In this document: one piece after another, positions 25,908 to 49,035 of the stretch
How the letters are laid out: each line of letters starts with the position of its first letter
Numbering within the stretch: the stretch's first letter is position 1
From: Escherichia phage LQ5
Sequence record: OR677401
DNA: 64,000 nt
Reading direction: 5' to 3' (one strand)
Notes under the pieces: generated by a model
What the model saw: the letters and a program-made list of their open reading frames with translations, nothing else
What the model was told of the DNA's origin: nothing
Databases searched by the model: none
Program-made: the position numbers and the translations under genes

Positions 25908-26762
25908 ATGAAATACATTACATACCTGACAATATATTCCGGGACTAAGCTTCCACCGTTTTATATAGGGTCCACTACTTTAGAGAAGCATTTAAAAGGA
26001 TACCATGGGAGCGTCCTTTCTAAAGCATATAAAGAAATCTATAACAAGGAGCTTTTAGAGCATCCTGAATTATTTGACTCATGTATTGTAAGTGAACACC
26101 CTACAAGAGAAGAGGCTTTAGAAGCTGAAAGAATGTACCAGTTAAGAACCGATGCGGCCCAAAATCCTCTATTCTTTAATATGGCTGTCGCAGCTCCTAA
26201 AGGATTCTTTGGGCTTTCGCTACCTAAAGAGCAACACCCTCTTTACGGCTCTCATAATGCTAAAGGATATATTCATTCCTATAATCCTGTTACATTAGAA
26301 CAAACCTTTGCACCTACAGTCCCCGAAGGATACGTAGAAGGTCGTTCTCCTAATTATAAAGCGTCTAGTCATAATAAGGGTAAGAAGTGGTATAACAATG
26401 GCGTTGATAAAGGATTATTTGTAGAAGGAAAACAACCTGAATCTTGGGTCCTTGGCAGTTTTCTAACCGATGAACATAAGAAAAACTTGAAAAAGACCGA
26501 TGGGATATATGACCCTGATATTCAAAAAGAATTAAAAGAGCTTTGGATTTCTACTGGATTTTTGCCACCGTATAAATTTAGAGAAATAGCTTTAGCTAAA
26601 GGTTTTATGGATGGTAATTATCACAATTTGGTTTATAAAATTTTTAAGCCTACAGTTACAATTACTAGACCTAAGAAAATCTGGGCTAATGACGGCATAA
26701 AAAGCTTTATGATTTCTGAGATAGAATTTAATAGTGAAATACATTATAAAGGTAGATTATGA
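25908..26762 (+). CDS. GIY-YIG-like putative homing endonuclease
   Basis: YITYLTIYSGTKLPPFYIGST N-terminus; AT-rich; sits where T4 carries alpha-glucosyltransferase. Confidence 0.4.
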   Translation: MKYITYLTIYSGTKLPPFYIGSTTLEKHLKGYHGSVLSKAYKEIYNKELLEHPELFDSCIVSEHPTREEALEAERMYQLRTDAAQNPLFFNMAVAAPKGFFGLSLPKEQHPLYGSHNAKGYIHSYNPVTLEQTFAPTVPEGYVEGRSPNYKASSHNKGKKWYNNGVDKGLFVEGKQPESWVLGSFLTDEHKKNLKKTDGIYDPDIQKELKELWISTGFLPPYKFREIALAKGFMDGNYHNLVYKIFKPTVTITRPKKIWANDGIKSFMISEIEFNSEIHYKGRL

Positions 26763-30607: not shown

Positions 30608-31306
30608 ATGAAATTCTCTAAAGAAACTCTGAACATTCTGAAAAACTTCTCCAGTATTAACCCAGGTATCATGCTTAAGCCTGGTAACACTATTCTAACT
30701 CGTTCAGTAACGGGTGCAAGTTATGGTGAAGCTACTGTAAGCGATACCTTTGATATCGAAGCCGCAATCTATGATTTGAACGGCTTCTTAAGTATTCTGT
30801 CATTGGTATCTGATAGTGCTGAAGTTTCGGTAAGTGAAGACCAAACCACCTTAATTATTAAAGACCAACGTTCAACTATTAAATGGCCTATTGCCGACCC
30901 AAGTACAATTGCATTCCCAAGCAAAGCTATTCCATTCCCGGTGGCTGAAGTTATTTTTGACCTTAAAGCCGAAGATTACCAACAGTTGATGCGTGTGTCC
31001 TCTGGATTGAGTATTGATACATTTGCTATCACTGTAGACAACGGTAAAATTGTAATCAATGGCTACAAACAAGTTGATGATAAGGACCTGGCACGTCCAT
31101 TGTATTCCTTAGTGGTTGCAGACCATGATGGTCCTGAATTCAAATTCATTATCAACAAAACCAATATGAAAATGATGCCTGCTGATTACCATGTATTGCT
31201 ATGGGCTCGTGGTGAAGGTCAGGATGCTCGTTTCGCAGCCAAGTTTGAAGGTTCACAAGCTTCTTATGTATTGGCTATGGAAGCAGGCTCAAGCCACTCG
31301 TTCTAA
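30608..31306 (+). CDS. 45: sliding clamp gp45
   Basis: collinear with T4 gp45 N-terminus as recalled (LKNF..IN.GIMLK.G..I.TR.V.G..Y.EA..SD..D...AIYDLNGFL.ILSLV). Confidence 0.95.
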   Translation: MKFSKETLNILKNFSSINPGIMLKPGNTILTRSVTGASYGEATVSDTFDIEAAIYDLNGFLSILSLVSDSAEVSVSEDQTTLIIKDQRSTIKWPIADPSTIAFPSKAIPFPVAEVIFDLKAEDYQQLMRVSSGLSIDTFAITVDNGKIVINGYKQVDDKDLARPLYSLVVADHDGPEFKFIINKTNMKMMPADYHVLLWARGEGQDARFAAKFEGSQASYVLAMEAGSSHSF

Positions 31307-31872
31307 TGTACATTTGCTATCATAATACAATAACAAATACCAAAACTAAGGATGTCTACCATTATTTCGGTAGACACCGTGTTACTCCTGAAGAATATTA
31401 TGGTACTGGTAAATTTGTTAAGAAATGCAAACGAGAAAATGCTATAACTCCTGGTGTTTGGGAGTTTAGTATTGAGGTTGTCCACAAAGCGGATACATTT
31501 AAAGAAGCCAAACTTATTGAAGAGGCACTTGTTAAAGAAGGTATTGCCAAGTATGGTTCACGTTGTGTTAATAAAGCTCCCGGTGGTCCGGGTGGTGTAG
31601 ATTTCCACAGTGCTGAATCTAAACGTAAGATGTCTATCAGCCGAACCGGAAAATCAAGAACATTTTCCGAAAGCCATAAGCTTAATTGCTCTAAATGGCA
31701 ACGCTCTGAAATATGGCAGAATTATGAAGAGCTCCGTAAGATTTGGATAGAACTTGGTATGCCTAAAAAGGGTAGATTTAGTACGCTTTTACAAAATTAT
31801 GGATATAATTATTCTGCAAACGAATTGAATAAAATTGTTAAACATTTTAATGAGGAAAATAATAATGAGTAA
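31306..31872 (+). CDS. degenerate GIY-YIG/seg-like homing endonuclease-like protein
   Basis: YICYHNTITNTKTKDVYHYFG N-terminus parallels the 25908 gene; C-terminal HSAESKRKMSISRTGKSRTFSESHK resembles DNA-binding repeats of phage homing endonucleases; inserted between genes 45 and 44. Confidence 0.4.
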   Translation: MYICYHNTITNTKTKDVYHYFGRHRVTPEEYYGTGKFVKKCKRENAITPGVWEFSIEVVHKADTFKEAKLIEEALVKEGIAKYGSRCVNKAPGGPGGVDFHSAESKRKMSISRTGKSRTFSESHKLNCSKWQRSEIWQNYEELRKIWIELGMPKKGRFSTLLQNYGYNYSANELNKIVKHFNEENNNE

Positions 31873-32842
31873 AGTGGTAAATGGTTTAACTATTAATGAA
31901 AATGACTTCATGTGGGAACAGAAATATCGTCCGGGTACTTTATCTGAATGTATTCTGCCTGCACATGATAAAGAAACTCTCCAAGCCATTGTTAATAAGG
32001 GTCTAATCCCTAACATTATCCTAGTCTCTGCTTCACCAGGCACAGGTAAAACTACCGTAGCTAAAGCATTGTGTGCTGATACAAATTCAGATATGCTTTT
32101 TGTTAACGGTTCCGACTGCCGTATTGATTTCGTTCGTAATGAACTTACTCGTTTTGCATCTTCCAAATCTATCGAAGGTAAACGTAAGGTAATTGTTATC
32201 GACGAATTCGACCGCGCAGGTGTTGCTGAAGCTCAACGTCACCTTCGTTCATTCTTAGAGGCCTATTCCTCAAACTGTTCTGTAATTATTACAGCAAACA
32301 ATATTGATGGTATTATCGGCCCACTTCAATCCCGTTGTCGTGTTATTAAATTTGGTGAAGCCACTCCAGCCGACCAAACATCCATGATGAAAGAAATGAT
32401 TCATCGTGCTGTAGCAATCTGTAAAAACGAAAATATCGAAGTCGAAGACCTTAAAGTTATTGCTGCCTTAGTTAAACAAAACTTTCCTGACTTCCGTAAA
32501 ACAGTTAACCAACTGGACCGTTACTCATCCGGTGGTAAAATCGATACAGGCATTTTGAGTATTGTAATGAATACCAATTCGCCTATCGATGAAGTAGTGG
32601 CTGCACTTAAAGATAAAAACTTTAAAGAACTCCGTGCATTAGCTCCACGCCATGTCAATGACTATTCCAACTTTATTATGTCGCTGGCTAACGAACTCTA
32701 TGGTAAATTGCCTGGGCCAAGCATTGTTAGAATGTACGAAATTGTCGGTGAAAATAACCAATACCATGGTATTGCGGCCAACCCAGAAATTCACATGACT
32801 TATCTGTTCATCCAACTTGCTCTGGAGCTCCAATGGCTATAA
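31865..32842 (+). CDS. 44: clamp loader large subunit gp44 (AAA+)
   Basis: Walker A SPGTGKTT, DEFDR, SRC motif; collinear with T4 gp44. Confidence 0.95.
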   Translation: MSKVVNGLTINENDFMWEQKYRPGTLSECILPAHDKETLQAIVNKGLIPNIILVSASPGTGKTTVAKALCADTNSDMLFVNGSDCRIDFVRNELTRFASSKSIEGKRKVIVIDEFDRAGVAEAQRHLRSFLEAYSSNCSVIITANNIDGIIGPLQSRCRVIKFGEATPADQTSMMKEMIHRAVAICKNENIEVEDLKVIAALVKQNFPDFRKTVNQLDRYSSGGKIDTGILSIVMNTNSPIDEVVAALKDKNFKELRALAPRHVNDYSNFIMSLANELYGKLPGPSIVRMYEIVGENNQYHGIAANPEIHMTYLFIQLALELQWL

Positions 32843-48378: not shown

Positions 48379-49035
48379 ATGAATTACGAAAAAATATACC
48401 AGGAATTAATATCTAAAGGAAAATTAAGAGGTTCTAAGCGGTCTTTATCATATTATACGGAAGAACACCATGTTATACCTAGATGTATGAATGGTTCTGA
48501 TGATAAAAACAATTTAGTTGCTTTATTGCCAAGAGAACACTTTGTAGCTCATAGGCTTTTAACAAAAATATATCCCGAAGTAAAAGGTCTACATTATGCT
48601 GTTAATTTAATGAGATATAATAAAGGAGTTAAATTAACTAGTAGAACTATAGCCACGTTAAGAGAAAATAACGCTAAAGCATTTTCAGGAAAAAATAACC
48701 CGATGTTTGGTAAACCTTCCTGGATTAGAGGGATGAAAACTCCTGAAGAAACTAAAGCCAAAATGCGCCTGGCTCATAAAGATAAAATTATATCTGATGA
48801 AGCCAAGGCCAATATGAGTAAAGCTAGAAAAGGAAGATTTAGTGGTAAAGATTCCCCTAGATATGGTTTACCGAATCCTAGGCGTGGAGAAATATGGAAT
48901 AGTTACGATATGCTTTACGAATTATGGGTTTACAATAATAAACCTAAACGCACCAAATTTAATAAAATAGCTGTTGATAATGGATATCCTGATATTTGTT
49001 ATCGACGAATGATAGAAAACTTTAATAGGAAATAA
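48379..49035 (+). CDS. HNH homing endonuclease with C-terminal DNA-binding repeats
   Basis: EEHHVIPRCMNGSDDKNNLVALLPREHFVAHRL HNH core; repeats NNPMFGK, TPEETKAKM, SDEAKANMSKARKG; AT-rich. Confidence 0.8.
   Translation: MNYEKIYQELISKGKLRGSKRSLSYYTEEHHVIPRCMNGSDDKNNLVALLPREHFVAHRLLTKIYPEVKGLHYAVNLMRYNKGVKLTSRTIATLRENNAKAFSGKNNPMFGKPSWIRGMKTPEETKAKMRLAHKDKIISDEAKANMSKARKGRFSGKDSPRYGLPNPRRGEIWNSYDMLYELWVYNNKPKRTKFNKIAVDNGYPDICYRRMIENFNRK

Follow-up and report, generated by a model that had tools for sequence, protein, structure and literature searches.

A probable Seg-like GIY-YIG homing endonuclease gene between the sliding clamp and clamp-loader genes of a Dhakavirus

Among phage homing endonucleases, the Seg proteins of bacteriophage T4 (SegA-G; PF19835) are the closest described counterparts of the product of an open reading frame (ORF) located between gene 45 (sliding clamp) and gene 44 (clamp-loader large subunit) in Escherichia phage LQ5 (OR677401), of which a stretch of 64,000 nt, referred to as the window, was analysed. 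The 45|44 ORF resembles the T4 seg genes in the N-terminal GIY-YIG pattern of its product (Y..YxG.H...Y.GSG...E...N..GG), the NUMOD3-type linker and the C-terminal DNA-binding module, and also in its position between conserved genes, the orientation shared with its neighbours, the form of a promoterless cassette, as described for endonuclease genes in T4 (PMC2988022), the sporadic distribution and the probable co-conversion of a flank (‘intronless homing’). It differs from them in that the protein is too divergent for a direct Pfam match, has a longer first β-hairpin and carries an extra PGVW insertion at aa 49-52, and in that the ORF, lacking a stop codon of its own, terminates within gene 44.

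Other T4 systems share individual traits with this locus. I-TevI, encoded in the td intron (PDB 1LN0, 1I3J), has two domains joined by a flexible linker with a NUMOD3-like element, and its residues Y6, Y17, E75 and N90 have equivalents in the 45|44 protein, which, in contrast, is not intron-encoded, is ~13% identical, lacks a zinc finger and ends in another C-terminal module. The overlap with the upstream gene is the UAAUG of nrdA/mobE, which has been interpreted as translational coupling (PMC2988022), although mobE itself encodes an HNH enzyme. Hairpins in the 5' coding region recall the terminators of mobE and segF (PMC2988022) but lack a U-tract. As in segG, which contains gene 32 promoters, signals of the downstream essential gene are embedded in the endonuclease ORF, the difference being that the embedded signal is here the gene 44 ribosome-binding site, a RegA-operator-like element, rather than a mapped promoter. 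Such embedding is a known retention device in segG (PMC2988022), and retention of the endonuclease gene would therefore be favoured. T4 MobD and an HNH endonuclease encoded elsewhere in the window have the C-terminal NUMOD3 and helical module in common with the 45|44 protein, whereas their nuclease domains are of the HNH type.

None of the 15 endonuclease genes of T4 lies at the 45|44 junction (PMC2988022, Table 1), and literature searches found no description of an endonuclease gene at this position. The ORF is probably an intact, free-standing Seg-like GIY-YIG homing endonuclease gene residing in the 45/44 intergenic site, with activity, target and homing predicted from sequence comparisons. 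It would give the free-standing homing endonucleases of T4-like phages a new site of insertion, one that lies within the core cluster of replication genes; no new mechanism is revealed by it. The ORF listing gives its extent, with the N-terminus quoted in the original prediction, and the gene and its domains are as follows.

31306..31872, + strand: probable Seg-like GIY-YIG homing endonuclease gene, free-standing, intact, 188 aa
31306..31599, + strand: predicted GIY-YIG nuclease domain, aa 1-98, with strands at aa 2-11, 17-25 and 52-62 and helices at aa 36-47 and 65-86
Key residues of the nuclease domain: Y5, Y20-F-G22, H24, Y31-x-G33-T34-G35, E72, N89, G93-G94
31603..31695, + strand: linker with NUMOD3-like motif, aa 100-130, HSAESKRKMSISRTGKSRTFSESHKLNCSKW, the least confident part of the structural model (predicted local distance difference test, pLDDT, 61-83)
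31708..31866, + strand: predicted C-terminal helical DNA-binding module, aa 135-187, four helices, helix-turn-helix / homeodomain-like

The assignment to the Seg family, already proposed in the original prediction, was borne out by several lines of evidence. The protein matches PHROG 314 ‘homing endonuclease’ (E 2.6e-16), and its sole Pfam match is NUMOD3 at aa 100-116 (E 0.0092, 16.3 bits, under the 20.4-bit cut-off). Word-indexed homologue searches gave only 4-5 proteins, and distant relatives required an exhaustive profile search, for which five close members served as seed against 1.84 billion representative proteins; this recovered 485 relatives at E<=0.001. Alignment and domain counts rest on a sample of 60 of these, in which SegE_GIY-YIG (PF19835) was matched by 27, GIY-YIG (PF01541) by 16 and NUMOD3 by 41 sequences. 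None of the nine closest relatives tested matched a GIY-YIG model, seven containing NUMOD3 and two giving no match. Membership of the GIY-YIG Pfam families is thus suggested transitively, through the profile-detected relatives. The C-terminal DNA-binding repeats that had been predicted are represented in the ORF by a single NUMOD3 match below cut-off, yet the same motif is clear in the relatives.

The residues expected of the nuclease are all in place. Seven columns are invariant across the 60 relatives (Y5, G22, Y31, G33, G35, E72 and N89) and all are kept in the window protein, which also has each of the positions conserved in at least 90% of them (Y20, S/T34, G93 and G94), Y20 being kept in 59/60. 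In place of GIY and YIG the window protein has ‘ICY’ and ‘YFG’, both of them usual in this family, with C found in 10/60 and F in 16/60 relatives, and the core motif that had been called degenerate is therefore a common family variant. Basic residues recur at position 24 (H in 48, R in 6, K in 4) and position 39 (K in 36, R in 8). In a weak match of the family profile to I-TevI (E 0.73), Y5, Y20, E72 and N89 pair with the catalytic Y6, Y17, E75 and N90, and G22 aligns with G19 of the Y17-G19 motif; candidates for an equivalent of I-TevI Arg27 in the window protein are R23, R25, K36 and K39, with H24 also nearby. The family profile further matches the DNA-binding domain of I-TevI (1I3J; E 0.0099). 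The AlphaFold model (pLDDT 89.6) adopts a GIY-YIG fold, its core being a three-stranded antiparallel sheet flanked by helices in the β-β-α-β-α order that defines the GIY-YIG superfamily, and its C-terminal helices match helix-turn-helix folds. Together, the comparisons support an endonuclease of the Seg-like GIY-YIG type that is divergent yet complete, its linker being NUMOD3-like and its C-terminus a helix-turn-helix, and for which nuclease activity is predicted; a nuclease joined to a separate NUMOD/helix-turn-helix DNA-binding region is the modular build found in Seg-type genes.

The tail of the protein is also found on other nucleases. Residues 76-188 are 33.6% identical to the T4 MobD tail, and the profile of the relatives matches the C-terminal module to that of the window HNH endonuclease at 48379..49035 (E 5e-6). 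This gene and the 45|44 gene carry one DNA-binding module on two nuclease domains in one genome; the shared tails reflect domain shuffling rather than orthology, which is usual among phage homing endonucleases.

The full-length alleles available for comparison range widely, with aa identities to the window of 99% for SHP1/MX01, 77% for Bp7/PSD2002, 64-66% for VR20 and two metagenome contigs, and 55% for a Hadza gut-metagenome phage contig. Five divergent alleles, the window copy included, are full-length and free of frameshift or premature stop. For the window allele paired with Bp7, VR20 and the contig L007, the ratio of nonsynonymous to synonymous substitution (dN/dS) is 0.19, 0.13 and 0.35, respectively, falling to 0.11 when only the nuclease domain of the Bp7 pair is counted, and synonymous sites diverge as far as saturation. 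Values of 0.1-0.35 indicate purifying selection on the protein rather than decay, and the window copy shows none of the marks of a pseudogene (frameshift, early stop, truncation, catalytic loss or dN/dS near 1). Its allele is a mosaic: the nuclease domain is 85% aa identical to that of Bp7, whereas around aa 126-158 identity reaches 72% to VR20 (a Gaprivervirus) and only 45% to Bp7, which has a 4-aa insertion there. This pattern could have arisen by recombination among alleles or by divergence of the DNA-recognition part.

A disrupted copy was encountered in vB_EcoM_005 (MK295203.1), where nucleotides 999-2435, corresponding to window 31306-32842, have lost 112 nt. The deletion takes out the C-terminal DNA-binding module as well as the ribosome-binding site and the first codons of gene 44. 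Endonuclease aa 1-156 are thereby fused in frame to gp44, and the GenBank product is a 478-aa ‘clamp loader subunit’. The arrangement may be genuine, a decayed or fused gene from which gp44 is made as a fusion or from an ATG at the junction, or it may be an assembly error, the record being only 155 kb.

The ORF lies in a replication-gene cluster whose order (46, 45.2, rpbA, 45, ORF, 44, 62, regA, 43) is that of T4 apart from the additional ORF, which runs in the same + orientation as both of its neighbours. DNA similarity places the phage in Dhakavirus, among the JS98-like Tevenvirinae, and the nearest records to the window are those of Salmonella phage SHP1 (97.9% identity) and of Escherichia phage MX01 (96.0%). 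The junction is defined by the following features.

30608..31306, + strand: gene 45, sliding clamp, upstream neighbour (Pfam gp45-slide_C E 1.5e-34; DNA_PPF E 3.9e-14)
31304..31308, + strand: TAATG stop/start overlap of gene 45 and the ORF, with the gene 45 TAA at 31304-31306 and the ORF ATG at 31306-31308, one base being shared
31865..32842, + strand: gene 44, clamp-loader large subunit, downstream neighbour (Pfam Gp44_lid E 4.8e-36; Gp44_C E 2.2e-29; AAA E 6.2e-17)

The ORF ends with a TAA at 31870-31872, and the gene 44 ATG occupies 31865-31867, giving the 8-nt overlap that had been read from the sequence at the outset. As had also been stated then, genes 45 and 44 are adjacent in T4, as they are in JS98, ABTNLS3, UPEC01 and KP17; in T4 and most relatives nothing but a spacer of 48-60 nt separates them.

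Aligning the 45/44 junction across relatives, as the original prediction had proposed, mapped the insertion and revealed a constant right and a variable left junction. In empty sites of three genera and T4, the gene 45 stop is followed by a hairpin rich in GC, by a short spacer rich in A/T and then by the gene 44 Shine-Dalgarno and the AUG, the conserved spacer reading TGGAGTAYAAWGTARAAAC...TGAGGAAA. Since they share one layout, the empty state is taken to be ancestral and the ORF to be an insertion. The right junction is alike everywhere and falls just 5' of (A)ATGAGGAAA, from where the ORF runs through the resident gene 44 initiation region and ends at the first in-frame stop within gene 44; it is because of this reading into the resident gene that the tails before the stop codon are lineage-specific (..FNEENNNE, ..FNEENNNGNSN and ..FNMNEENTNEIDSK). 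At the left junction, Gaprivervirus keeps the hairpin and GGAG, with just 18 nt of spacer replaced, whereas in Dhakavirus and L007 the hairpin is lost and the ORF abuts the gene 45 stop. The 3' end of the ORF is slightly AT-richer than the flanks, although base composition is not diagnostic.

The gene is present in a small minority of genomes. Within Dhakavirus, it was found in 8 records (5 phages) of ~54 at >=90% identity, counting as carriers those with >=80% query coverage (8 of 208 matching records, ~54 of which are at >=90% identity). For Gaprivervirus, 2/34 records carry it, both being entries of VR20. L007 is the one gut-metagenome contig of the Jiaodavirus lineage with the gene, which was absent from all 211 records related to this contig, 143 of them being isolates (Klebsiella phages) at >=90% identity to it. 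IMG/VR gave VR20 only, and the JGI metagenomes gave one further VR20-like copy. The family totals six isolates and a few metagenome contigs, and every homologue found sits at the 45|44 junction. This sporadic, one-site presence and absence among close relatives is as found for Seg-type homing genes. A gene conserved at the junction throughout the group was looked for, as a result that would speak for a non-nuclease role, and the gene proved to be missing from most Dhakavirus, Gaprivervirus and Jiaodavirus genomes; being absent from most members of each of three genera, it is dispensable. JS98, WG01 and QL01 are among the phages without it.

Comparison with empty and occupied genomes pointed to exchange beyond the ORF itself.

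31865..31978, + strand: probable co-conversion tract, gene 44 5' end, from alignments with empty-site and occupied genomes

The first 14 codons of gene 44 in the window, MSKVVNGLTINEND (31865-31906), are of a foreign long type. Occupied Dhakavirus genomes begin gene 44 with MSKVVNGLTINENDF, a long type resembling Gaprivervirus MATVINGLTVNESDF, whereas empty-site Dhakavirus genomes begin it with MLTVNNNEF. In the flanks, the window is most similar to ABTNLS3, a phage with an empty site; 7/699 nt are mismatched in gene 45 and 12/930 nt in gene 44. Five of the gene 44 substitutions cluster at 31933-31978 (positions 27, 42, 54, 57 and 72 after the TTCATG anchor at 31907), only 7 mismatches remaining in the other 858 nt. 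The cluster is present in SHP1 and absent from Bp7, and the tract lengths of window/SHP1 and of Bp7 differ because Bp7 lacks the five substitutions. The foreign-type 5' end and the cluster probably represent a co-conversion tract. The two Dhakavirus endonuclease alleles differ at a proportion of synonymous differences (pS) of 0.49, their flanks at pS 0.07-0.08. The empty nearest relative, the foreign flank, the discordance between allele and flank divergence and the mosaic allele all fit repeated gene conversion from diverse donors.

A plausible course of events can be proposed. The protein would be made at a low level from the 45-44-62 transcript, probably by reinitiation at the TAATG following the highly translated gene 45. 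On co-infection with a relative lacking the gene, the C-terminal NUMOD3 / helix-turn-helix module would bind the ‘empty’ 45-44 spacer region and the N-terminal GIY-YIG domain would cut nearby, producing a double-strand break, whose recombination repair from the carrier genome would copy the gene and the neighbouring gene 44 sequence into the cut genome. It is proposed that carriers are immune because the spacer sequence is replaced in their genomes. The cassette brings no 3' untranslated end; its ORF runs into the ribosome-binding site of the resident gene 44 and terminates within that gene, so that a clean deletion would be costly.

Several results weigh against this interpretation. The ORF protein reached no Pfam GIY-YIG model (PF01541 or PF19835), even at E<=1, so that of the hidden Markov model search originally suggested, the GIY-YIG part failed and the NUMOD3 part succeeded only below cut-off; NCBIfam and PDB sequence searches returned nothing, and Foldseek gave no significant match in the PDB. 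In the single, weak alignment with I-TevI, Arg27 belongs to a stretch inserted relative to the Seg-like profile. Homing elements that spread efficiently might be expected to occur more often than this rare family does. Between genera, the endonuclease retains 56-66% aa identity, a divergence similar to that of gp45 and gp44 with synonymous sites saturated, and at this scale long-term vertical residence with repeated loss is conceivable. Recent transfer across genera was also considered and was dropped, since saturation at synonymous sites of both the endonuclease and the flanks does not allow it to be claimed. The absence of a direct Pfam match, the ICY and YFG tripeptides and the deleted, gp44-fused copy in vB_EcoM_005 would also suit a decaying relic, an inactive remnant drifting toward loss, as the original prediction had favoured. 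That the window gene is such a relic is nevertheless very improbable, given that these tripeptides are normal in the family and all invariant residues are present, that the model is confident and has a GIY-YIG fold, and that five uninterrupted alleles have stayed under selection while reaching synonymous saturation; the truncated, fused copy is that of vB_EcoM_005, outside the window.

Purifying selection is equally what would be seen if the gene were a domesticated endonuclease descendant, kept for a phage function and no longer homing, whether because its product binds or nicks DNA in the replication operon or simply because the gene 44 ribosome-binding site lies inside it. The essential, highly expressed operon, the placement of the gene 44 initiation region within the 3' end of the ORF, the between-genus divergence like that of the flanking genes, compatible with long residence, and a rarity unexpected of an efficient selfish element lend this option, which had also been raised originally, some force. 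It is unlikely all the same, as the sporadic distribution argues against it: the gene is missing even from the window's closest relative in the flanks. The catalytic-type residues are moreover all kept, and the flank-discordant divergence, mosaic allele and foreign-type flank tract indicate repeated horizontal exchange. A selective advantage might instead lie mainly in cutting co-infecting rivals at 45-44, with spread of the gene secondary, a form of marker exclusion like that of T4 against T2, in whose partial exclusion T4 Seg endonucleases have been implicated (PMC2993671; PMC2988022). Such a competition weapon would use the same enzymology as homing and would strike a region within essential replication genes; sequence data cannot separate the two, yet the co-conversion signature shows that the gene itself has been copied, and the weapon as the main selected effect is improbable.

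An intact homing endonuclease gene thus remains the best explanation, and the locus provides a clean natural setting in which intronless homing and co-conversion can be examined in an operon that is both essential and translationally regulated: there are carriers and non-carriers whose flanks are 97-99% identical, two alleles that have diverged, a fused copy in decay and one site common to three genera. For phage therapy and engineering, it marks a locus where recombination of co-infecting Dhakaviruses is likely to be biased. It is possible, if somewhat doubtful, that the family forms a small, long-lived endonuclease lineage specialised on the clamp/clamp-loader junction, persisting at low frequency in at least three T4-like genera and moving between diverged genomes. 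Its hosts would be phages of Escherichia/Salmonella and Klebsiella, and its presumed target, the 45-44 spacer with the ribosome-binding region of gene 44, is conserved from one genus to another; its expression would be wired into the replication operon through start-stop coupling to gene 45, the 5' hairpins and a C-terminal tail whose codons fall in the RegA-regulated initiation region of gene 44. The amount of nuclease and the translation of gene 44 would then constrain each other, and the foreign-type gene 44 5' end would be a footprint of homing from another lineage. A 2010 review of T4-related genomes reported no convincing evidence of such movement for intron-encoded elements (PMC2993671).

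The expression signals around the ORF comprise the start overlap already listed and the following elements.

31849..31867, + strand: gene 44 translation-initiation region AATGAGGAAAATAATAATG, with Shine-Dalgarno GAGG at 31852-31855, within the last codons of the ORF (..FNEENNNE, stop)
31312..31338, + strand: hairpin HP1, ATTTGCTAT / ATAACAAAT, 8/9 pairs, starting 6 nt after the ATG (weak evidence)
31350..31378, + strand: hairpin HP2, GGATGTCTACC-ATTATTTC-GGTAGACACC, an inverted repeat within the codons for DVYHYFGRH

No Shine-Dalgarno was seen upstream of the ORF start on reading the sequence, and translation is probably coupled to that of gene 45 by termination-reinitiation at the TAATG, by analogy with nrdA/mobE. 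A scan for promoter and terminator consensus sequences was uninformative (11 promoter-like sites against 7.6 expected). The gene 44 initiation element of the window, AAUGAGGAAAAUAAUAAUG, resembles both the RegA operator region at gene 44 of T4 and the A/U-rich consensus that systematic evolution of ligands by exponential enrichment (SELEX) yielded for RegA; the T4 gene 44 start bears GAATGAGGAAATTATG, and RegA operator sequences are quoted in PMC3014915. The empty sites of three genera keep the same element, just 5' of which lies the right junction of the insertion. The region is thus RegA-operator-like, and RegA would be expected to bind here. Codons for aa 161-188 are unusually conserved synonymously, 12/17 being identical across alleles, compared with 5/27 for aa 26-100 and 5/20 for aa 101-160.

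Both hairpins fall within the first 75 nt of the ORF. HP1 is present in all alleles, as a perfect 9 bp stem in VR20 and in shifted form in L007, and was not recovered in the RNAalifold consensus. HP2 is kept in all alleles and forms a 17-bp stem in VR20. Fold z-scores were -1.65 for the window, -2.47 for Bp7, -5.8 for VR20 and -1.68 for L007, and are strong only in VR20. Substitutions in the hairpins are mostly C/T opposite G, the codons of G22 (GGT) and R23 (AGA) being invariant, and the covariation test found two-sided change in 1/11 pairs with a covariation term of +0.22, the independent alleles being too few. Because covariation is weak and z-scores are strong in VR20 alone, the hairpins are reported as an observation rather than a finding; a role in throttling translation, known from other endonuclease genes of T4, is possible.

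Two further endonuclease genes were noticed in the window. The first, at 25908-26762 (+), just upstream of gene 47, is a second Seg-like gene of 284 aa, whose product matches PHROG 10820 (E 1.8e-83; labelled ‘HNH endonuclease’ in the library) and PHROG 314 (E 6.8e-19) and had no match in Pfam or NCBIfam. The parallel originally drawn between its N-terminus and that of the 45|44 protein holds at profile level, where both match PHROG 314 and the profile of the 60 relatives of the 45|44 endonuclease matches the 25908 protein at E 1.4e-10, but not in pairwise comparison, as BLASTP gave no N-terminal alignment between the two proteins. The second, at 48379-49035 (+), is a 218-aa HNH homing endonuclease gene (motif EEHHVIPRCMNGSDDKNNLVALLPREHFVAH; PHROG 655 E 1.4e-54), and the homology with the DNA-binding tail of the 45|44 protein lies in its C-terminal region (..GEIWNSYDMLYELWVYNNKPKRTKFNKIAVDNGY). 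Dhakaviruses without the 45|44 gene bear other Seg-like genes elsewhere, 26-30% identical, as seen in ABTNLS3 (OR756449.1, 37097-37753), IME08, IME281, IME341 and KIT01, so that the endonuclease complement differs widely within the genus.

Public annotation of these loci is uneven. The 45|44 gene is labelled ‘hypothetical’ or ‘unknown’ in SHP1, MX01, Bp7, PSD2002 and VR20 and is merged into gp44 in vB_EcoM_005, labels that the present assignment corrects. Many of the other Seg-like genes are unannotated, IME08 having no feature at all under the match. The gene 44 start is set too far upstream in UPEC01 (MW233709.1, 816-1832), at an ATG within the spacer after the hairpin, and in Bp7 (HQ829472.1, 1555-2547), 15 nt upstream of the conserved ATG with its Shine-Dalgarno; both are probably start-codon miscalls.

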